Program-made: the position numbers and the translations under genes
IMG/VR virus record: IMGVR_UViG_3300034150_000057
Span: 1 to 38,398 of that record
Direction: 5' to 3' (one strand)
From: a virus
DNA: 38,398 bases
Notes under the pieces: model-generated
The model's database searches: none
What the model was told of the DNA's origin: nothing
The model's input: only the letters and a program-made list of their open reading frames with translations
Shown: piece after piece, positions 4,410-36,413 of the stretch
Position numbering within the stretch: position 1 is the first letter of the stretch
Layout of the letters: each line of letters opens with the position of its first letter

Positions 4410-4439
4410 TATACGCGGCGTGGACCAACGCCCTATAAT
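4410..4439 (+). promoter_or_regulatory. Early promoter P2 (TATACG-N18-TATAAT, followed by CATC)
   Basis: The -10 is at 4434-4439 inside gccctataatcatc. A perfect UTR hairpin CCGCCC acct GGGCGG lies at 4449-4464. SD AAGGGGA at 4471-4477 sits 6 nt before the GTG at 4484. Confidence 0.55.
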
Positions 4440-4483
4440 CATCTTCTACCGCCCACCTGGGCGGGCAAGCAAGGGGAACCACC

Positions 4484-6027: not shown

Positions 6028-6101
6028 CCAAGTGTGGACGCGACGACGATCCGTCTCAACACGACGTATCACGGCCTACCCGTGAGAACGAAAATAGGGG
6101 G

Positions 6102-6130
6102 TGTACAAACCCGATCGCCCAGGGTATATT
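6102..6130 (+). promoter_or_regulatory. Early promoter P3 (TGTACA-N17-TATATT, followed by CATC)
   Basis: The -35 is at 6102-6107, preceded by GGGGG as in P1, and the -10 is at 6125-6130. UTR hairpin GGCCG accac CGGCC at 6142-6156. SD AAGGGGA at 6158-6164 sits 5 nt before the ATG at 6170. Confidence 0.55.
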
Positions 6131-6169
6131 CATCGTCAGCCGGCCGACCACCGGCCTAAGGGGAAGCAA

Positions 6170-7033
6170 ATGAGAGGGAACCCACTCTGCCCGATAAACC
6201 TCAAGCACGGGTATCTCAAAACCTGGGAACCAGGCACCATCGCAGCGTGGTGGTGCGGACACATGGACCACGGCGCAAATGGCCGCTTCTTCACAGATAG
6301 CGAAGCCCGTGGCGAAATCACTCTCAAGGAGTCAGACGTGGCAAAGATCTACCAGGCAACCGCGAAGGCCGTCATCGCCGGCACCGTCACCGAAGAGGTC
6401 GCGGTCAAGCAGCTGGCCAACCAGTTGCAAGTCTCGGCAGACGAGGCGCTTGAAGGGCTGCGGGCCGAGCTGGCCAGGCAGCGCACGAGCGCCGAGGCGA
6501 CGGCCGAGCAGAAGGAAGTCGTGGCCAAGCGGAAGGCCGCCCCGAAGGAGAAGGTCGCGAAAGGGCCGCGTGTCAAGCTCGAGCACGTCGAGCCTGAGGA
6601 ATTCGCAGCCGTCCGCGATCGCCTTGGCCTGTCCAACAAGCAGGTCGCAGACGCGCTGATCGACGTGGTCGGCGCCAAGCCTGGTGAGCCGCCGACGCTC
6701 TCGCGCGTCACGGAACTCACCCACTCGAAGGGTTCGAGCCGGCCGCTGTTCGTCAAGTACGAGACGGCCCTGGTGAAGTACGCCAAGACCCACGAGTCCG
6801 CCGCGTCGATCGCCGCGAAGGCGAAGGCCGCGAAGGAGAAGGCGGACGCAGCCGCAGCCAAGGCGAAGGCCGATGCCGCAGCCAAGGCAGCGAAGGCCAA
6901 CGGCAACGGCAAGCCTGCCGCCGATCCGGCGAGCAAGGCCCCGCGCCGCAAGCCTGCCGACGTCGGTGGAACCACGCCTGTTGGTGCGAATGGCGCGCCG
7001 GGTGCAGACGGGGCCGGCCAGAGCGCCGACTGA
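6170..7033 (+). CDS. Lys/Ala-repeat (histone H1-like tail) putative DNA-binding protein
   Basis: 287 aa from the SD-supported ATG at 6170 (track ORF starts at 6101). Central HTH-like segment LSNKQVADALIDV...LSRVTELTH. The C-terminal low-complexity stretch is AAKAKAAKEKADAAAAKAKADAAAKAAKANGNGKPAAD. Confidence 0.6.
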   Translation: MRGNPLCPINLKHGYLKTWEPGTIAAWWCGHMDHGANGRFFTDSEARGEITLKESDVAKIYQATAKAVIAGTVTEEVAVKQLANQLQVSADEALEGLRAELARQRTSAEATAEQKEVVAKRKAAPKEKVAKGPRVKLEHVEPEEFAAVRDRLGLSNKQVADALIDVVGAKPGEPPTLSRVTELTHSKGSSRPLFVKYETALVKYAKTHESAASIAAKAKAAKEKADAAAAKAKADAAAKAAKANGNGKPAADPASKAPRRKPADVGGTTPVGANGAPGADGAGQSAD

Positions 7034-7037
7034 CCAC

Positions 7038-7182
7038 GGGAGCCTACGGGCTCCCAGGCCGGCCAAGACCTATCCCCTTGGGTCTTGGCCAACTTGGGAG
7101 CCCGTCGGCCGACGTGGTGGATCCTGGACGCCCGTGGGGCGTCTGGAAAATAGGGCATTCCCTTTCCGAAGGGGATGCCCTA
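7038..7182 (+). other. Array of four GC-rich stem-loops in one intergenic region; the first is terminator-like and the last overlaps promoter P4
   Basis: GGGAGCC tacg GGCTCCC (7038-7055). GGCCAAGACC N10 GGTCTTGGCC (7061-7090). GACGCCC gtg GGGCGTC (7127-7143). TAGGGCATTCCC tttccgaa GGGGATGCCCTA (7151-7182). There is also the 12-nt palindrome CGTCGGCCGACG (7103-7114). Confidence 0.5.
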
Positions 7183-7186
7183 TATT
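7158..7186 (+). promoter_or_regulatory. Promoter P4 (TTCCCT-N17-TATATT, followed by CATC), embedded in a 12-bp hairpin
   Basis: The -35 is at 7158-7163 and the -10 at 7181-7186, inside gccctatattcatc. SD AAGGGGA at 7224-7230 sits 4 nt before the ATG at 7235. Confidence 0.5.
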
Positions 7187-7234
7187 CATCTTGTGCCGGG
7201 ATTTACCGGTGGGGAACCAGGCTAAGGGGATCGG

Positions 7235-7414: not shown

Positions 7415-7446
7415 CACTCGCCAGGCGTCGTCCAAATTTTGGGGCG

Positions 7447-7475
7447 TTCCCTTTTCGGAGGGGACGCCCTATATT
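7447..7475 (+). promoter_or_regulatory. Promoter P5 (TTCCCT-N17-TATATT, followed by CATT), embedded in a 10-bp hairpin
   Basis: Hairpin GGGCGTTCCC ttttcgga GGGGACGCCC (7442-7469), structurally homologous to the P4 hairpin. The -10 is at 7470-7475. It is followed by a ~150-nt leader before the SD at 7620-7626 and the ATG at 7633. Confidence 0.5.
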
Positions 7476-7632
7476 CATTCCCGGCGGGTTCCATGTGTCC
7501 GAACTCGCCAGGCTCGCCGACCGGATCCCACGTTGCGTTGTCCAGGCCTGACGTTCGGTTCGCTACCAAACCTCTCACGCCCGCTTCCCAACGACCCGGC
7601 CGGCGAGTCCGTTCTACCGAAGGGGATCAAGT

Positions 7633-8058
7633 ATGGCTACCAAGCCAACGCTCGAGGAGTACGCGCTTACACTCGCCTGGGCAGCGAGGCTTCGTTCCGA
7701 GGATCCACATCGCCAGGTAGGAGCATGCGTGCTCGGTCGCGACGGTGTGGTCCTGGGCCTCGGATACAACGGCCCGCCAACCGGTGTGGACCTGGAGCCA
7801 GGCATGTGGGCCAACCGGCAATTGGTTCGCGACGTCGTGGTGCATGCCGAGACCAACGCTCTTCGGTTTGTGCGGCCGCGTGAGGGGAAGATACTCGCCA
7901 CCAGCTACCATCCGTGCCTCGACTGCCTGAGGTTCGCTGCCGCCCAGGGAGTTCACACGATCGTGTACGGCACCGTCCCGTCCACGCGTTGGCGGCCGGC
8001 CAGCGTGCAGCTCGCAGCCAGGCTGTTTGACATCGACCTGCGGAGACTCGACGTCTGA
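7633..8058 (+). CDS. dCMP deaminase (zinc-dependent cytidine/deoxycytidylate deaminase family)
   Basis: 141 aa with the zinc-ligand motifs HAETNA (aa 71-76) and PCLDC (aa 94-98). GYNGPP is typical of ComEB/dCMP deaminases. Confidence 0.85.
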   Translation: MATKPTLEEYALTLAWAARLRSEDPHRQVGACVLGRDGVVLGLGYNGPPTGVDLEPGMWANRQLVRDVVVHAETNALRFVRPREGKILATSYHPCLDCLRFAAAQGVHTIVYGTVPSTRWRPASVQLAARLFDIDLRRLDV

Positions 8059-8453
8059 TGGATAAGAACGCCGGCCTGCTGTATTTCCTCACGCTTGTCG
8101 AGGGTGACGGCCTAGTTCATTCGTACGAGCGCACTCGTGGCCATGAGAAGCTGATCGCCGGCGACGCCAAATATGGCCCCGACTCCTGGCGCTCGCACGA
8201 CCACCTGTACGAGGCCGTCAACGAGACCGTAGACCTCGTCAACTATTGCTATCTCCGATGGCTTCAGCTCGAGGATCAGTACGAAGTTCTTGGCCCGCAT
8301 GCTCGCCAGGCAATCGAGGCGGCGCGCACGGAGCTAATCGCATTTGCTCGCGAAGCCCTTGTCATCGGCCGTGGCCTGGATCGTCTGCGCCTGACACTTG
8401 CTCAAGCCGGTGTGCCGGCGTCACTCGACGGGCGCAATCTCGTCGGCCTGTGA
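8058..8453 (+). CDS. All-alpha NTP pyrophosphohydrolase-like protein (MazG/DUF550-like); candidate dNTPase
   Basis: 131 aa. GDAKYGPDSWRSHD followed by LYEAVNETVDLVNY (E-x3-E-x2-D) resembles the metal-binding helix pair of MazG-type phage pyrophosphohydrolases. Start overlaps the upstream stop (TGATG). Assignment is by eye only. Confidence 0.4.
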   Translation: MDKNAGLLYFLTLVEGDGLVHSYERTRGHEKLIAGDAKYGPDSWRSHDHLYEAVNETVDLVNYCYLRWLQLEDQYEVLGPHARQAIEAARTELIAFAREALVIGRGLDRLRLTLAQAGVPASLDGRNLVGL

Positions 8454-8638
8454 ACCGCGCTGAGCTGCGCCAGGCATGGGCAAACCGCAATTTGCGATAC
8501 ACGCGACCTCTCACTCCTGACGAGATAGCGGCCGTTCGCCTTAGCCGTATGCGCGAAGCCAACCAAATTCGCCAAGGTGGTGAACTCTACCGAGATGCCG
8601 CTCGTTGGCAACCGCCTACGCACGAGGATCGGAAATGA
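8450..8638 (+). CDS. Hypothetical small protein (62 aa)
   Basis: GTGA overlap at 8450 and ATGA overlap at 8635. In frame with track ORF 8246..8638. Confidence 0.45.
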   Translation: MNRAELRQAWANRNLRYTRPLTPDEIAAVRLSRMREANQIRQGGELYRDAARWQPPTHEDRK

Positions 8639-9465
8639 CCCCTACGCTCAGCTCTGGTTGGTACGACGCTCTGACCGCGGTCATTCAAGACGGGATCTCG
8701 ATTGCGCCGACGAAGGGGCCGGCGCTCGAGTACCCTGGCGTATTCGCTGTCGAGATCGAAATGCCGCAGTCGATCATCCTCGACGTGCCCGGCCGTGAAT
8801 TTCGCCACGTGATCGGAGCGCTCGAGGGTTTGAGCCTCGTTGGCCAGGTCAGCATCGCCGAGACCTTCATCGATCGCGTGGCCGCCTTCCGCCCCTTCGT
8901 CCGGCACTCGATTTTCTGGGGAGCCTACGGTCCACGCGCGGCCGGCTCCATTGGACAGATCGCAACGATGCTCGCCGTGAAACCGGACAGTCGCCAGGCG
9001 GTGATCTCACTCTACAACTCGAAGACGGACCTGGGCCGGCCCGAAGAAGTCGACGTGCCGTGCACGCTTACAATCCAGTTCAAGGTTCGCCGGCAACGTC
9101 TCGAGATGTGGGTCGCGATGCGATCCAATGACGTCTGGCTTGGATTGCCGTATGACCTGATGCAATTCGCAATGCTCCAGGCCGCGATCGCCCAGCACCT
9201 CGGTATTCCGGCTGGACCCTATACGCACACGGCCGGCAGCATGCACCTCTACGATCGCCATTCGGTCAAGGCCCAGGAGGTTTACCGATCTGGCTCCGTG
9301 GAAGGCTGGAACCCGACGGTGATGGACTCGCCGGTATGGGGCGGGTCAGGGGATATCTCGGAGACCGCGAGTCGCGCCAGGCGAATTTTGCTGGGCGAGG
9401 AACACTACCTCGACAACCTGACGGAATTCGAGAAGCAGATGGTCCAGTGGCTGATCAAGTTCTAA
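8635..9465 (+). CDS. Thymidylate synthase superfamily enzyme, dCMP hydroxymethylase/methylase-like (Asp at the base-specificity position)
   Basis: VPCTLTIQFKV...AMRSNDVWLGLPYDLMQFAML...GSMHLYDRH aligns by eye to ThyA PCHAFFQFYV...[21 protein letters not shown]...GDTHLYSNH. Catalytic Cys143 is at nt 9061-9063. Asp174 (nt 9154-9156) replaces ThyA Asn177, with identical 31-residue spacing. KPDSRQAVISLY and MRSNDV resemble T4 gp42 as I recall it. The start is taken at the ATGA-coupled ATG at 8635. Confidence 0.7.
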   Translation: MTPTLSSGWYDALTAVIQDGISIAPTKGPALEYPGVFAVEIEMPQSIILDVPGREFRHVIGALEGLSLVGQVSIAETFIDRVAAFRPFVRHSIFWGAYGPRAAGSIGQIATMLAVKPDSRQAVISLYNSKTDLGRPEEVDVPCTLTIQFKVRRQRLEMWVAMRSNDVWLGLPYDLMQFAMLQAAIAQHLGIPAGPYTHTAGSMHLYDRHSVKAQEVYRSGSVEGWNPTVMDSPVWGGSGDISETASRARRILLGEEHYLDNLTEFEKQMVQWLIKF

Positions 9466-28193: not shown

Positions 28194-28872
28194 CGGAAAT
28201 GACCTGCTGGCCGATCCGCCAGAGTTCGATGAATGACTTGACCTCGAGCGGCCAGGCGGACATGTCGAATACGTTGCCGGCCGGCGTCGCGATGGCCCCG
28301 GCGAGTAGCGCACCCGTCGGCCGCAAGGTCAGGAAACCGGCGAGCGCCTTCGTTGCCAGGCGCACCGGTTCCGGCAAGTCCGCGTCCAGGAAACCACCGT
28401 CACCGGTGAGCACGAGATCGCCAGGCAGCGAACCTCCGCTGCCGCCCCAATTGCCAGGCCACCGCGGAGAATCCAGGTTGCGGTCAAACCAGTCCGAATA
28501 GTGGAGCCACGACGGGCCGTCCGAGCGCGAGCCGTACGCCCGAAATTGGATGCCCAGGATAAGCCCCGTTCCGGAGGGGTCGGGCTGGAGCCAATAGCCT
28601 TGCTCGGCCACGAGCGCGGACCCCGCCAGGACCACGCTTGCCAGGCTCCGAAAACCTGGAAGCGGAACCGAAGCTGCGCCCTCGGTTGTCACCGTGAACG
28701 TGGCCGCCGGCCGATCGTGGAAGAAACGCCCGGTGGCGCGCTCCAGCATATACGACGCGGCTCGAAGATTTGAGGTGAGGATGCCCGAGGAATACTTGCT
28801 CTCCGCCGCAACCGGATCCAGGTCCATGTATTCGCGGAGCTGCTCTTCCGTGGCGAACATTGGCGTCGTCAT
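28186..28872 (-). CDS. Head-tail adaptor / connector protein (gp6/gp15-like)
   Basis: The N-terminus FATEEQLREYMDLD...SSGILTSNLRAASYMLERATGR is typical of head-tail connector proteins. ATGA-coupled to the upstream glycosyltransferase. Confidence 0.6.
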   Translation of the reverse strand: MTTPMFATEEQLREYMDLDPVAAESKYSSGILTSNLRAASYMLERATGRFFHDRPAATFTVTTEGAASVPLPGFRSLASVVLAGSALVAEQGYWLQPDPSGTGLILGIQFRAYGSRSDGPSWLHYSDWFDRNLDSPRWPGNWGGSGGSLPGDLVLTGDGGFLDADLPEPVRLATKALAGFLTLRPTGALLAGAIATPAGNVFDMSAWPLEVKSFIELWRIGQQVISVG

Positions 28873-30065
28873 ATCGAACTCTCCAAGTAGCTCGCCAGTT
28901 TCCCAGCCTCAACAGGCCAGGAAAATTTCGTTCGCACCTGCGTCACCGCCTGCGCCGCCATGAGCCCGCGCTCTCGAGGAGAATCCAGCATCTCCCCGAC
29001 AGCATTACCGAACTGGTCTTCATCAACGGCGCACCAGAAGTGCCCATACTCGTTGTCAATCAATTCGACCGGCACCACAACGCCGGCCTTCCCGATCACC
29101 TCGGGAACCGCCGAGTAATTCGCACCGACAGCCGGCACTCCGCAGGCAAGCGCCTCTGCGATCGTCAAACCAAATCCTTCAGCTGACGTTGAAGCATACA
29201 CGTCGGCCATATTGTACAGGGCGCAGAGCGTGGGCCGGTCAAGTAGAAATCCACGATCGTGGTACCCGGTGTTCACCATCTGCTGCGAGATAGCCGGCGG
29301 AAAGTGCGAGTGCAAATCTCGCAAGTCTCCACCCGGGTCTGAGCTTCGGCAGTGCATGACGAGCAGGACGTCCGGCCTGGCGAGCAGCACCGGTGCCATT
29401 GCCCGCATCAACGAGGCGTATCGCTTGCGCGGCCAGTTGGCGTCGGTCCTGAGAACCACGCGCGCCTTGGGGTCAACGTGAAAGTATTCCCTGGCCTCGG
29501 CCTTGGATCGGATCACCGTCGAACCCAGGCGAATCGGCCGCGTTGCCGTGGCCGGGTAGAAATCCTGGCTCACGCCGTGGTAGATCACCGGCGGCCGTGA
29601 ACCCATGATCTTCTGGATCTCATCCGCACCGAATTCCGACATGGCGATCGGGCGAACGAATGACCAGAGCTTTGCCCATGCTGGCGGCAAGCCGATGCCT
29701 TCGACGGGAACGTAGTGGAACGTTGGGATTCGACGGAACATTTCCTCGCCGGCCTCATCCATGAAGACCAGCAAACGAGCAGCGTAGAAATCTCCGAGCA
29801 AGACGATAGCCTCGGGTTCCCAGGCGTCCGGCCAGGCACCGGCTTCCACGATCTTGGCCGGGCTGAAATCCCCCGCCGCCAGCCATCCCTCCCGGCGTTC
29901 GCTCAAGCTGAGCGTCCGCGATGCGAATGGTTCCGCCAGGTCACCCAATTCGTTTTGAGAAACGAACCTCACGTCGTGGCCGAGCGCGAGCAGCTCCCGC
30001 CCCATGTCCATCGTCACGGTACCGAACCCGGTCCCCGCCAGGTCACCGAAGAACAGGAGTTTCAC
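28869..30065 (-). CDS. GT-B fold glycosyltransferase (GT4/Glycos_transf_1-like)
   Basis: 398 aa. The C-terminal signature STSAEGFGLTIAEALACGVPAVGANYSAVPEVIG is the EX7E-type motif of GT4 enzymes. The GTG start overlaps the upstream stop (GTGA). Confidence 0.8.
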   Translation of the reverse strand: MKLLFFGDLAGTGFGTVTMDMGRELLALGHDVRFVSQNELGDLAEPFASRTLSLSERREGWLAAGDFSPAKIVEAGAWPDAWEPEAIVLLGDFYAARLLVFMDEAGEEMFRRIPTFHYVPVEGIGLPPAWAKLWSFVRPIAMSEFGADEIQKIMGSRPPVIYHGVSQDFYPATATRPIRLGSTVIRSKAEAREYFHVDPKARVVLRTDANWPRKRYASLMRAMAPVLLARPDVLLVMHCRSSDPGGDLRDLHSHFPPAISQQMVNTGYHDRGFLLDRPTLCALYNMADVYASTSAEGFGLTIAEALACGVPAVGANYSAVPEVIGKAGVVVPVELIDNEYGHFWCAVDEDQFGNAVGEMLDSPRERGLMAAQAVTQVRTKFSWPVEAGKLASYLESSI

Positions 30066-33363: not shown

Positions 33364-33465
33364 CTAGCCTTTCTTCGCCGGCTTCGGTTTTGCTTTGGGC
33401 GGCGGCTTCGTGACAACCAGCTCGCCCTTATTCCAACCGAACCGCTTGGAACTTTCCTTCGTCAT
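33364..33465 (-). CDS. Possible small basic protein (33 aa)
   Basis: Own translation: MTKESSKRFGWNKGELVVTKPPPKAKPKPAKKG. The ATG overlaps the portal-fusion stop (ATGA at 33462-33465). Confidence 0.3.
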   Translation of the reverse strand: MTKESSKRFGWNKGELVVTKPPPKAKPKPAKKG

Positions 33466-36413
33466 AGCGTTGCCACGATGTGTCGAATTCCTTCCGCGTC
33501 AGTCACATCGGAGATGATCTTCAGCTTCGTGCCGCGCGGGAAGATCAGCTCCGCCTCGCGATCGTTGAAGAATTCCCAGGCGGCATGTGCGCCGGCCGGC
33601 ACCCGAATTTCCATGTACGCCGGGTTGTCCTTCTGGTCAGCGAATTCCTCGCCGGTCCGACGGCTCAGGGACGTGGACATGAACCCAGGATCGGTCACTT
33701 CTCCGCCCGTCAGATTGCCAGGCAGGTACGCGCTATCCAATCCGCGGAACACCTTGATCGGTTTGGGGATGGTATTCCGCACGATCGCCCCGTCCAACGC
33801 GGCGATCTGCACCTTGTGATCCTCGACCTGGTTTCGACGGATGGCATTGTTCAACGCTGTCGATGACTTGTAATACGACCCCAGTGCAGAGACTTCCTCG
33901 GGCGCCAGGCTCTCGCGCCAGGCTGCGAATTCCGCGTCACCCCACTTGACACCTTCCACGTGGCTGTCAAATTCGGTTGCCTCACTCGTCGCCTCGAGTT
34001 CCTCGCCAGCTTCGGCCAGGGCGTCGGGATCAATCTCATCCTCGCCGCTGCCGCCCTCGACCGGATAGATAGGCGAGCTGTCATCAATTAGCGGGATCCA
34101 ATCCAATGTGCCGTTCGGATGATCTTCGATCTCGGCCGCTTCGTCGACGGTGAAGACCTGGCCATTGCGCTCGGCGCACTCCTCATCAAAGTCGCCGTCG
34201 ATCGCTTCGACCTTCTCGACACCCAATTCGCGGTAGCTCTCGACTGCGGCGTCGTTGTACGCGAACGCCGATTCGGTCCGGGCGATTCGCTCCGCGCGCG
34301 ACTCGCCGAATTCAGCCAGGCCGCGCACGGCTTCGATCGCATCGTTGAGCGTGGCTTCTTCGTTCTTGAAGGTATATGCCAGCGCCTCGCGAACCGCATT
34401 CCGCGTGGTCTCATTGATGCCGGCGATGCGATTGCCGCCATGGTCCAGGACCTTCTCGGCCACGCGATCCTCGAGATGGATCGGCGCGGCCTTCACCGGC
34501 CCGGCCTTGGTCAGCACGTTCACCACCCCGCCGGATGCTTCCGTCGCGATCCGTTCGATGTGAGGTGTGAGCGCTGCCGCGAGCTGGGCATCCTGGCGCG
34601 ACGACCAATACGCACCGGTGTCACCAGGCTTGCTGCGGAGATGCCCAATTCCGACAGTGCGAAGCCGCGTGATGACCTGCTCCAATTGCTGTGCCAGCGC
34701 CCGATTTGTGCTCGCCTCGAGGGGCGTGAGCGTCTTCCGTTCGATGCGCGTTCGCAGACCCTTCAGCATGGACTGGCGCAGCTTTGCCTTCGCCTCGGCG
34801 TCAGGTTCGCCAGGCGCCTTGACCGTGACAGGCTGGAGCCCGGTGTGCTGGATCGGCGGAAGTCCAACAGCACCGAGCGAGCCAGCCGGGTCGAAGCCCG
34901 AGCGAATGAGGATACCAACCGCGTTGACCTGGTCGAGCAGCGGCGCCGGCGGAGCGCCTGGCACCGGCGGCGAATTTGCCTCCGGCTTCGGAGTGGGAGG
35001 CGTCTCGGGAAGAGCCTCGTGCGTGGCCGTCGATTCGGATTCGGGCGCAGCACCTTCGATGCCAGGCAGACCCTCGCCCGGGCCGGCCGGCATCGGCGCG
35101 ACCGGCAAGCTGACGGAGGCGACGTAAGCCTCGACCATCCCGCTCGGCAGCAGCACCAATTCGTCGAGCAGGCCGCCCTCCGGTGTTTTGATCTTGTCAC
35201 CGAATGGCTCGAGCCCGAGAATGGTCCGGCGCTCGGCCACCGTCAGCGGCTGGTCAAGAGCCTTCTGCGCCTTCTCATACCTGGGCGAGTCATCGTCAAA
35301 TTCCGGCTCGTCAATGATGAGTTCGACCGTGAGGTTGAATGCCTTGTACCGGTCGAGCAGCCCGAACTGAATCGTCTCGCGGATCGTCTCGAGCCGATCG
35401 TGCACCGCACCCTGCCAGAGCACGGCCTCATCATAGGACTTGGTTCCGCCGCTGTTCAGCCCGGCCGGCGCCTTCTGTCCGACCTGCGAACCTGGCACCC
35501 GCCAACCAGTGAGGATGTCGTCACGAGTCATTGCCATGAGTTCGACAAGCTCGAGATCGTCCATATTTGCCGTGGTCTGCATGAAGTCGATCGGACCGCG
35601 CGCAACCTGGAGTCGCTTCGCCGCCTGCGGTGACTCCACGATATTGCGCCAGTCATTCACGAATTGGGTCCACTGTTCCGGAGTGATCGTCGTCGCGTTG
35701 TCCTTCGGCGAGACGATGCCGCTCAGCCGGCCGCCGGCACTGAGCACACCCGAAACGTGAGCGTCGCCCAGGCGAGTGAGCGCCGCCTTCTCGCCCCATG
35801 CCTCGACCAGCCCGATACCGAAATGGCCGAAGTCAGGCGGATCCAGGTAGAACGAGAGAACCTCTTCCGCCTCGAGCGGTGTGCCGCCCTCGTCAATTGG
35901 ACGGTCCAACGACCAGCCGAGCAGGTTGCCGGCCTTGTCTTCGGCGGCGTACATCCGCGCCGGATTCAGATAGAGAATCGCCAGCGGAGTTCCGCCCAGT
36001 GCCTCGCTCTGGTCGAGGTACCAGAAGCCGGTACCGCACAGGCCGGCATGCCTGGAGGTGAGCGTCCACATTTCGCGACGCGCCATCTTGCGCTTGAGGT
36101 CTGTCGCGGCCTGCGGCTTCTCGAGCAAATCGCGAATGGCAACGAGTGCCGGTGGGCTGTCGTCGTTGATCAGCTCGCCGTCGTCAGTCTCGAGGTGCCA
36201 GGCCACACCGCCCGCCCGGCTAGATACCGCCTGCTCCGCCAGGCGAACCCAGGGATGCCGGCGATATAGCTCCTGAGCGGCAAGCGCCATCTTCTGGGGA
36301 GTGCGGCCGAGTGACCACATCGGCGTCGTGTACGCGAGCGCGGAAGCACCCGGCCCGGAGTAAGCACCGAAGCTGCCCGCCTTGGCGGAACGCCGGCCAA
36401 TGAGAATACTCAC
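33462..36413 (-). CDS. Portal protein fused to a MuF-like head morphogenesis domain and a C-terminal ADP-ribosyltransferase toxin domain
   Basis: 983 aa. Portal-like region aa ~30-430. Pro-rich linker aa 431-540. MuF/SPP1 gp7 signature GESRAERIARTESAFAYN...EDHPNGTLDW (aa ~545-775). Acidic linker. ART triad: KVFRG (R890), FMSTSL (S913-T-S915), REAELIFPRG (E953-x-E955). Confidence 0.85.
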   Translation of the reverse strand: MSILIGRRSAKAGSFGAYSGPGASALAYTTPMWSLGRTPQKMALAAQELYRRHPWVRLAEQAVSSRAGGVAWHLETDDGELINDDSPPALVAIRDLLEKPQAATDLKRKMARREMWTLTSRHAGLCGTGFWYLDQSEALGGTPLAILYLNPARMYAAEDKAGNLLGWSLDRPIDEGGTPLEAEEVLSFYLDPPDFGHFGIGLVEAWGEKAALTRLGDAHVSGVLSAGGRLSGIVSPKDNATTITPEQWTQFVNDWRNIVESPQAAKRLQVARGPIDFMQTTANMDDLELVELMAMTRDDILTGWRVPGSQVGQKAPAGLNSGGTKSYDEAVLWQGAVHDRLETIRETIQFGLLDRYKAFNLTVELIIDEPEFDDDSPRYEKAQKALDQPLTVAERRTILGLEPFGDKIKTPEGGLLDELVLLPSGMVEAYVASVSLPVAPMPAGPGEGLPGIEGAAPESESTATHEALPETPPTPKPEANSPPVPGAPPAPLLDQVNAVGILIRSGFDPAGSLGAVGLPPIQHTGLQPVTVKAPGEPDAEAKAKLRQSMLKGLRTRIERKTLTPLEASTNRALAQQLEQVITRLRTVGIGHLRSKPGDTGAYWSSRQDAQLAAALTPHIERIATEASGGVVNVLTKAGPVKAAPIHLEDRVAEKVLDHGGNRIAGINETTRNAVREALAYTFKNEEATLNDAIEAVRGLAEFGESRAERIARTESAFAYNDAAVESYRELGVEKVEAIDGDFDEECAERNGQVFTVDEAAEIEDHPNGTLDWIPLIDDSSPIYPVEGGSGEDEIDPDALAEAGEELEATSEATEFDSHVEGVKWGDAEFAAWRESLAPEEVSALGSYYKSSTALNNAIRRNQVEDHKVQIAALDGAIVRNTIPKPIKVFRGLDSAYLPGNLTGGEVTDPGFMSTSLSRRTGEEFADQKDNPAYMEIRVPAGAHAAWEFFNDREAELIFPRGTKLKIISDVTDAEGIRHIVATL

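Follow-up and report, generated by a model that had tools for sequence, protein, structure and literature searches.

The 38.4 kb window analysed here (IMG/VR virus record IMGVR_UViG_3300034150_000057, positions 1 to 38,398, G+C content about 0.62) is the nearly complete genome of an uncultured siphovirus-like phage, and the subject of this account is a plus-strand module of four genes within it, which probably serves to modify the cytosines of the phage DNA. The module encodes a zinc deaminase of the deoxycytidine monophosphate (dCMP) deaminase family, an all-helical protein of 131 amino acids (aa), a 62-aa open reading frame (ORF), and a homologue of thymidylate synthase (TS) that is predicted to act on dCMP (Table 1). 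Four coupled genes were already proposed in an initial annotation of the window, and the coupling, with the 62-aa ORF included, is borne out by the gene junctions, with overlaps in TGATG (8056-8060), GTGA (8450-8453), and ATGA (8635-8638). Downstream follows the gene of an SNF2 helicase, whose probable start codon, GTG 9447, falls within the last part of the TS gene. The order of deaminase, a protein of either the DUF5664 or the 131-aa family, and a TS homologue of the aspartate type is kept in seven of seven related contigs, within a syntenic replication module. The 62-aa ORF gave no family match in searches of Pfam, PHROG, and NCBIfam; it is not conserved at the corresponding position in one of these contigs (L001), and the other relatives carry unrelated small ORFs inside the module.

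Table 1. Positions of the module genes and of other features of the window.
Feature	Position	Strand	Basis
dCMP-deaminase-family zinc deaminase, 141 aa	7633..8058	+	Pfam PF00383, PHROG 174
All-helical 131-aa protein, candidate nucleotide pyrophosphohydrolase	8058..8453	+	slot holds DUF5664 (PF18909) in relatives
62-aa ORF, GTG start, coupled to both neighbours	8450..8638	+	ORF list, without family match
TS-superfamily enzyme, 276 aa from ATG 8635, predicted dCMP C5-hydroxymethylase	8635..9465	+	Pfam PF00303, residue signature
Hairpin (14-bp stem) followed by GCCCTATATTCAT (TATAAT-like -10 box), candidate promoter/terminator	7440..7478	+	sequence
310-aa protein	6101..7033	+	
GT4-family glycosyltransferase	28872..30065	-	Glyco_trans_1_4 (8e-13), GT4-conflict (2e-6)
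983-aa portal/MuF/ADP-ribosyltransferase-like fusion	33465..36413	-	PHROG 2662 (3e-45), PHROG 3895 (1e-7)

The TS homologue matches Pfam PF00303 (Thymidylat_synt), scoring 78 bits where the gathering threshold is 24.3 (E 8.5e-22), although only residues 103-215 are covered by the match. A protein-database search returned 816 relatives, the best 120 of which were examined after being aligned to E. coli ThyA with MAFFT; apart from one near-identical copy of the query, these share 38-61% identity with it, and almost all are metagenomic. The catalytic Cys143 in VPCTL (TGC, 9061-9063) and Asp174 in LGLPYD (GAC, 9154-9156) were found where the initial annotation had placed them, and their spacing of 31 residues is that of E. 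coli ThyA (146/177) and T4 gp42 (148/179). The annotation's claim that Asp174 occupies the base-recognition position of ThyA Asn177 held in every alignment made, and HMMER alignments with more than 60 TS structures and with MilA, a CMP 5-hydroxymethylase from the mildiomycin pathway (PDB 5b6d), likewise place Asp174 on Asn177/Asp186 in a conserved LGLP[FY][ND] block. Since Cys143, Asp174, and at least 20 further positions are invariant in all 120 relatives, the features of the homologue cannot be put down to chance; Asp140, Thr144, and Asp166 (ThyA L143, H147, and D169) show the same invariance. The catalytic Cys and the ligands of phosphate and sugar, namely C143, R163, S164, D166, H204, Y206, R120, E64, and Y98, are all present and equally invariant (in E. 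coli the Cys of the P-C motif, R166, S167, D169, H207, Y209, R126, E58, and Y94).

Databases name the relatives “thymidylate synthase”, and phages commonly encode a deaminase together with ThyA for nucleotide salvage, in which the deaminase would supply deoxyuridine monophosphate (dUMP), the TS homologue would convert it into thymidine monophosphate (dTMP), and the DNA would stay unmodified. Such an ordinary thymidylate supply is very improbable here, given that none of the marks of a canonical ThyA (Asn177, L143, W80/W83, the tail, and the equivalog cut-off) was found in the query. Asp replaces Asn177 in 120 out of 120 relatives; L143, H147, W80, W83, and R127 of ThyA are all replaced (D140, T144, F85, F88, and a Gln at the R127 position); the ThyA C-terminal tail is absent from the query by alignment; and every NCBIfam ThyA equivalog scores far below its cut-off (68 bits versus 327 for the best model and 63 versus 108 for TIGR03284).

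Published residue rules allow the product of such an enzyme to be predicted. N177D confers dCMP specificity, and H147 and N177 are the positions that best separate the TS homologues of cytosine-modified contigs from those of unmodified ones (PMC8670742). An acidic residue three positions before the catalytic Cys activates water, so that a hydroxymethyl instead of a methyl group is formed (PMC6400193; PMC13326640), and the D145N mutant of the T4 enzyme lost its hydroxymethylase activity (PMC6400193), while D169N marks the flavin-dependent 5-hydroxy-dCMP synthases (PMC13326640). The four diagnostic sites taken from these studies (E. coli L143/H147/D169/N177; PMC13326640, PMC6400193, PMC8670742) were read from genome-record sequences: L/H/D/N in E. 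coli ThyA (product dTMP), D/T/D/D in T4 gp42 (5-hydroxymethyl-dCMP, 5hm-dCMP), D/N/D/N in SPO1 gp29 (5hm-dUMP), E/T/N/D in RB69 gp48 (5-hydroxy-dCMP), and N/P/D/D in PaMx74 gp52, an XP12-type enzyme of a 5-methylcytosine (5mC) phage (5m-dCMP). The query and its clade have D/T/D/D, an exact match to T4 gp42, and 5hm-dCMP is the predicted product. Asp140 lies in VDVPC, and the same residue is found in T4 gp42, SPO1 gp29, and MilA, with Asn in PaMx74 and Leu in ThyA. Ser164 and Arg120 (E. coli 167 and 126), the determinants of deoxyribose, are present where MilA has Ala and Lys; an A176S/K133R double mutant of MilA was switched to dCMP (PMC5175136).

The overall similarities point the same way. 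MilA is the best solved relative of the TS homologue (4.5e-18), ahead of every ThyA, and similarity extends over the full length to the protein of the Gordonia phage Phendrix (7.7e-40), to a “pyrimidine hmase” (1e-30), to SPO1 gp29 (6e-20), and to MilA, whereas the alignments with ThyA and PaMx74 are limited to a core of 120 residues at about 1e-15; identity to any cultured phage does not exceed 35%. The initial annotation had left the choice between hydroxymethylase and methylase open. As far as sequence can settle it, the residues favour the hydroxymethyl product, and the enzyme is predicted to be a dCMP C5-hydroxymethylase because it has Asp140 before the Cys, retains an Asp at the D169 position, and is more similar to MilA and SPO1 gp29 than to ThyA or PaMx74.

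Asp at the N177 position also occurs in 5m-dCMP synthases, and the query might accordingly be viewed as a dCMP methyltransferase of the XP12/PaMx74 type, paired with a methylation-selective deaminase that turns 5-methyl-dC into dT nucleotides, in a phage whose DNA carries 5mC for C. A deaminase stands in cis in XP12, PaMx74, and the mSCD-B5 contig (bioRxiv 10.1101/2024.12.05.627091), five out of seven deaminase-linked TS homologues tested made 5m-dCMP (bioRxiv 10.1101/2024.12.05.627091), and dT derived from the deamination of 5-methyl-dC would explain why a second, uracil-specific TS is absent. The residues nonetheless make this reading unlikely. Beyond Asp177, none of the marks of a 5m-dCMP synthase (a non-acidic residue at 143, W80, and the C-terminal segment) is found in the query, which has D140 in place of the Asn of PaMx74 and the Leu of ThyA, T144 in place of the Pro of PaMx74, and F85 in place of Trp80, and which lacks the ThyA-like C-terminal segment; PaMx74 could be aligned over the core only (4.5e-15), and its frd gene has no counterpart here, as no dihydrofolate reductase gene lies adjacent to the module. 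AXL3 and PW916 were considered as XP12-type methylases that would break the L143 rule and were rejected as members of a different Asp143 clade; PaMx74 was used for the methylase comparison.

An Asp at 177 and an acidic residue at 143 are common to the query and the enzymes of RB69 and DLP3, which raises the prospect of a flavin- and O2-dependent 5-hydroxy-dCMP synthase resembling RB69 gp48 and DLP3 gp80, with the product later glycosylated by the GT4-family enzyme encoded in the window; the DNA arabinosyltransferases of RB69 and DLP3 are also GT4-like (PMC13326640). The D169N exchange is absent, though, as the query and all 120 relatives retain Asp166 where RB69 gp48 has Asn in the same alignment. 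No genes for NDP-sugar biosynthesis were found, and the GT4 gene belongs to the virion module, as it does in a phage whose annotation lists no TS gene. A product of this kind is hardly to be expected.

Two segments of the TS homologue deserve mention in their own right. Residues 227-276 (9310-9465) form a clade-specific, conserved C-terminal extension of about 50 residues in place of the ThyA tail, with W235, I241, R247, R249, L252, G254, T263, and E266 as its conserved residues, and gp180 of phage Phendrix possesses a similar segment. At residues 26-27 (8710-8715), the query has Thr-Lys where 117 of the 120 relatives have the Arg that is equivalent to the phosphate ligand R21 of E. coli; Lys27 may substitute for this Arg, since T4 gp42 has Lys28 in the same segment.

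One of the closest known systems is that of T4 gp42, which works together with the gp56 dCTPase, the cd deaminase, and the gp1 kinase. In addition to the four-site signature and the 31-residue Cys-Asp spacing, the two enzymes have in common the MRSNDV segment and the H-x-Y sugar-binding motif, the ThyA-type C-terminal tail is missing from both, and each has a dCMP deaminase as its partner. The resemblance to gp42, which the initial annotation had noted, was confirmed from the T4 genome, with MRSNDV identical and NPDSRRGIMIY and GSLHVYSRH similar. Overall identity is nevertheless only about 21-23%, the weakest match among the references (1.2e-10); unlike gp42, the query lacks Ser94, has a Gln at the R127 position, and carries its own C-terminal extension, and a gp1-like kinase, a secure gp56-like dCTPase, and a DNA glucosyltransferase beside the gene are all missing from the genome, unlike in T4. 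MilA shares the Asp at N177, the Asp at L143, the Thr after the Cys, and GSxH[LI]YD; it differs in Ala176 and Lys133, which favour CMP (PMC5175136), and in belonging to an antibiotic gene cluster instead of a phage replication module. SPO1 gp29 aligns with the query over nearly the full length (26.6% identity over 244 residues) and shares the Asp at 143, the Gln at 127, and the Phe at 83, but Asn at 177 and 147 makes it uracil-specific, and it has a long C-terminal domain.

The gene at the head of the module encodes the deaminase. Its product carries the HAE (residue 71) and PCxxC (PCLDC, residue 94) zinc motifs, just as had been noted at the outset, and matches Pfam PF00383 (dCMP_cyt_deam_1; 51.8 bits against a cut-off of 25, 7.8e-14) and PHROG 174 “dCMP deaminase” (3.4e-23). 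Its best solved relatives are human dCMP deaminase 2w4l (1.8e-12), the chlorovirus-type 7fh4, the cyanophage enzyme 4p9c, and 1vq2 of T4. In six related contigs compared as DNA, an orthologue (46-58% identity) is encoded upstream of the TS gene, and a seventh has a dCMP_cyt_deam_1 gene at the matching position. The co-localisation of deaminase and TS genes has been tied to cytosine-modified phage DNA (PMC8670742; bioRxiv 10.1101/2024.12.05.627091): in metaviromes, 70% of the dCMP-deaminase genes carried by cytosine-modified contigs were located within 3 kb of a TS gene, versus 6% of those carried by unmodified contigs (bioRxiv 10.1101/2024.12.05.627091), and Asp177 marks the modified contigs (bioRxiv 10.1101/2024.12.05.627091; PMC8670742). 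The pairing of a deaminase with an Asp177-type TS homologue is an established hallmark of cytosine-modified phages, recognised here by its sequence in an uncultured lineage. The known modules of this kind (MetaGPA contigs, XP12, PaMx74, AXL3, PW916, and the Manatee Spring phages) have the same gene set, clustered beside replication genes; they differ in encoding a PRA-PH (MazG-type) pyrophosphatase and, in AXL3, also a kinase, whereas the lineage of the query has DUF5664 with or without an NDT-like domain, or else the 131-aa family (in the window and in L001).

Phage enzymes belonging to the dCMP-deaminase family differ in their substrates, and some act on 5-substituted dC nucleotides (bioRxiv 10.1101/2024.12.05.627091). 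The neighbouring deaminase could therefore be imagined to turn 5hm-dCMP or its triphosphate into the 5hm-dU nucleotide, so that thymidine would be replaced and the DNA would contain 5-hydroxymethyluracil (5hmU), alone or together with 5-hydroxymethylcytosine (5hmC). Seven phage enzymes of this family from modified-cytosine contigs converted 5hmdC nucleotides to 5hmdU in vivo (bioRxiv 10.1101/2024.12.05.627091), the deaminase and TS genes are closely coupled and conserved together, and a host thymidylate kinase might accept 5hmdUMP, which would explain the missing phage kinase. Weighing against this are the known 5hmU phages, which use Asn177-type dUMP hydroxymethylases such as SPO1 gp29, and the closest solved relatives of the deaminase, which are ordinary dCMP deaminases; moreover, genes for the further modification of 5hmU (5hmdU kinase, aminotransferase) were not found in Pfam and PHROG scans of the window. 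Thymidine replacement is regarded as distinctly unlikely.

The 131-aa protein is the weakest point of this reading. The initial annotation had described it as MazG-like on account of an E-x3-E-x2-D helix, and the motif itself (EAVNETVD, residues 52-59) proved to be real and conserved, yet the MazG label could not be confirmed by any profile or fold match. A word-indexed homologue search returned the protein itself only, and an exhaustive phmmer search yielded 11 relatives; in the 11-member family, there is no variation at K38, Y39, G40, W44, D48, E56, D59, N62, and Y63, and hardly any at E52. At the level of a motif, E52, E56, and D59 fit the acidic helix (E-x-x-E / E-x-x-D) with which all-alpha NTP pyrophosphohydrolases bind metal. 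Neither the protein nor its relatives matched Pfam, PHROG, or NCBIfam, and the top PDB-sequence matches (Chd1 and tektin) were rejected as chance matches to a short motif. An AlphaFold2 (AF2) model of high confidence (pLDDT 90.7) consists of four helices and is all-helical. Foldseek searches of PDB and BFVD with this model gave nothing at E<0.5 and only helical-hairpin noise, and a model of a bona fide DUF5664 protein, run as a control, was equally blind, with nothing significant and MazG entries only at E about 7. Comparison by hhalign of the 131-aa family with DUF5664 gave a probability of 15.8% when 5 DUF5664 sequences were aligned and of 40% when 67 were, supported only by the L..G..KY....W motif; values for PRA-PH and dUTPase_2 were below 3%, in a test of little power, as the control comparison of DUF5664 with those families gave 0.1%. 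The fold and profile nulls are therefore uninformative, true DUF5664 controls having failed alike.

The slot between deaminase and TS genes is filled by DUF5664 (PF18909) in six related contigs, five of them compared as DNA, and by the 131-aa family in the window and L001, and DUF5664 is an experimentally shown dNTP-to-dNMP pyrophosphohydrolase domain (deoxynucleoside tri- to monophosphate; PMC12884076). It is possible, although somewhat doubtful, that the 131-aa protein is a dCTP pyrophosphatase. In three of the six relatives, DUF5664 is fused to an NDT-like DUF4406 domain, and these DUF4406-DUF5664 fusions lie directly upstream of the Asp-type TS gene (L002, 9216-9998; L009, 9030-10001; L010, 8920-9804); each of the three contigs additionally has a separate dUTPase_2 gene. 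The fusions resemble DmtZ and DUF5664, encoded by separate genes in the PurZ0 Z-genome phages, here in the context of a cytosine module. A further homologue of the 131-aa protein (P0123, 35% identity) is encoded at positions 3053-3484 of L020 (ENA contig k141_2561889), directly downstream of genes for QueD/PTPS, radical-SAM QueE, and GTP cyclohydrolase I, which together make up a gene set for 7-deazaguanine; the family is thus also found beside a chemically unrelated modification pathway.

From the domain identities, the residue signature, and the conservation of the module as observed, the activities of the enzymes, the incorporation of the product, how far it replaces cytosine, and what the 131-aa protein does may be inferred as follows. 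The TS-superfamily enzyme would bind dCMP, with Asp174 reading the N3/N4 edge of cytosine and Ser164 and Arg120 selecting deoxyribose. Cys143 would attack C6 of the base, the one-carbon unit would come from methylene-tetrahydrofolate, and Asp140 would activate a water molecule so that the exocyclic methylene is hydrated instead of undergoing hydride transfer, giving 5-hydroxymethyl-dCMP. Kinases of the host, or one of the phage that escaped recognition, would phosphorylate this nucleotide, and the family-A DNA polymerase of the phage would incorporate it. The 131-aa protein may hydrolyse dCTP to dCMP, both supplying the substrate and keeping cytosine out of the DNA. The deaminase would divert part of the dCMP pool to dUMP for dTMP synthesis by the host, balancing the pyrimidine pools, and this role is proposed since no uracil-specific TS is encoded by the phage itself. 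Taken together, it is judged fairly probable that the module carries out a pre-replicative cytosine modification of the T4 type and that the virion DNA contains 5hmC for some or all of its C.

Several observations weigh against this reading and should be given fair consideration. First, no nucleotide kinase was found in the window, by a Walker-A scan and by Pfam and PHROG searches of the other ORFs, or in the seven related contigs, the Walker-A scan of the window having returned only Sak4, the terminase, and the DUF2786 ORF; the initial annotation had likewise recognised no dNMP kinase. T4, RB69, AXL3, and Phendrix each pair their TS homologue with a kinase. This leaves three options: 5hm-dCMP is accepted by host kinases, one of the ORFs of unknown function encodes a kinase, or cytosine is replaced only in part. 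Second, the genome has no secure dCTPase, its sole candidate being the 131-aa protein, which has no profile or fold match, and a dUTPase_2 gene that is present in six related contigs is absent from the window and L001; T4 gp56 itself matches dUTPase_2. As neither a dNMP kinase nor a secure dCTPase was found, the replacement of cytosine may be incomplete. Third, relatives of the 131-aa protein are also encoded at a distance from TS genes, next to FolE-QueD-QueE, SbcCD-like genes, and unknown ORFs, and the family is for this reason not tied to cytosine modules. Fourth, the S-x-Y motif that positions water in the T4 enzyme (Ser94-x-Tyr96), with Ser or Thr two residues ahead of the Tyr that serves as catalytic base, reads Gly96-Ala97-Tyr98 in the query. 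This Ser is the only published hydroxymethylase feature that the query lacks; it is also missing from SPO1 gp29 (A-P-Y), a proven hydroxymethylase, and MilA has Thr. Last, only a few characterised enzymes underlie the L143 rule, which is a correlation.

The GT4-family glycosyltransferase (Table 1) is encoded between the capsid gene and the head-tail connector/adaptor genes. Its nearest cultured homologue belongs to Pontimonas phage phiPsal1, where it likewise follows the capsid gene in this slot, in a genome whose annotation lists no TS or deaminase; a scan of IMG/VR with the GT4 sequence returned only the same phage as that of the window. A role as a DNA 5hmC glycosyltransferase was rejected as the leading reading on the strength of the phiPsal1 homologue, and the glycosylation of virion proteins is the simpler reading: the enzyme most likely glycosylates these and not DNA. 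The base composition of the window was also consulted. Four-letter palindromes containing C are not avoided (observed/expected: CCGG 401/319, GGCC 427/432, GATC 307/255, GCGC 359/377), and TTAA is depleted (1 versus 7 expected under a Markov model), a pattern that would fit the protection of cytosine, if weakly. TGCA stands at 0.68 of expectation.

A bolder version of the preferred 5hmC reading can be formulated, in which an uncultured lineage of GC-rich siphoviruses runs a minimal, kinase-less 5hmC pathway, the 131-aa family, as a group of all-helical enzymes not recognised before, takes the place of the MazG, DUF5664, or dUTPase_2 type of dCTPase as a general accessory of phage DNA modification, and the GT4 enzyme might glycosylate 5hmC. 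The notion of a general accessory is prompted by the relatives in the 7-deazaguanine cluster. As a whole, this proposal is considered rather unlikely.

The module is part of a plus-strand early and replication region that also encodes a Prim-Pol primase, DUF2786, the SNF2 helicase, RuvC, a PD-(D/E)XK exonuclease, Sak4, SSB, and the family-A DNA polymerase, and the structural genes are on the minus strand of the window. The hairpin element at 7440-7478, corresponding to promoter P5 of the initial annotation, lies about 155 nt upstream of the module. Its TATAAT-like core, GCCCTATA(A/T)TCAT, occurs four times on the plus strand of the early region (2637-2649, 4430-4442, 7177-7189, and 7466-7478) against 0.36 matches expected by chance, and a hairpin with a 14-15-bp stem directly precedes it at 7150-7183 and 7440-7471. 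It is plausible from their sequence that these combined hairpin and TATAAT-like elements are candidate early promoters of the phage, perhaps combined with terminators or operators.

A DNA similarity search with positions 7633-9465 against cultured phages gave zero matches, and identity of the capsid protein to cultured phages is at most 24%; by these measures, the phage is far from any cultured one. The same phage was found again in JGI, ENA, and Logan assemblies. A tRNA gene scan of the window found none. Two further proteins may be recorded. The 983-aa protein of the minus strand carries a portal domain (PHROG 2662) together with a MuF/head-morphogenesis region, and its C-terminal segment resembles ADP-ribosyltransferase toxins (PHROG 3895); it is similar to the polymorphic-toxin MuF fusions of other phages. 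The 310-aa protein has no family match; its N-terminus is rich in Cys and His, its middle part is like a helix-turn-helix, and its tail is rich in Ala and Lys. It is encoded upstream of the deaminase gene in six out of six related contigs compared as DNA, at 30-44% identity and a variable distance.

Two traits make the module modestly unusual: no kinase is recognisable, and the pyrophosphatase slot holds a protein that lacks annotation. If the 5hmC reading is confirmed, an abundant, well-defined metagenomic clade with no cultured member and with probably actinobacterial hosts would join the cytosine-replacing phages, with a product predicted at the level of single residues to be 5hmC and not 5mC or 5-hydroxycytosine. 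The absence of a kinase raises the question of whether host kinases suffice for 5hm-dCMP in such hosts, and the exchange of DUF5664 for the 131-aa family points to a possible new enzyme of the nucleotide pool. Many restriction enzymes would fail to cut the DNA of such phages, which could also bias methods depending on cytosine chemistry.

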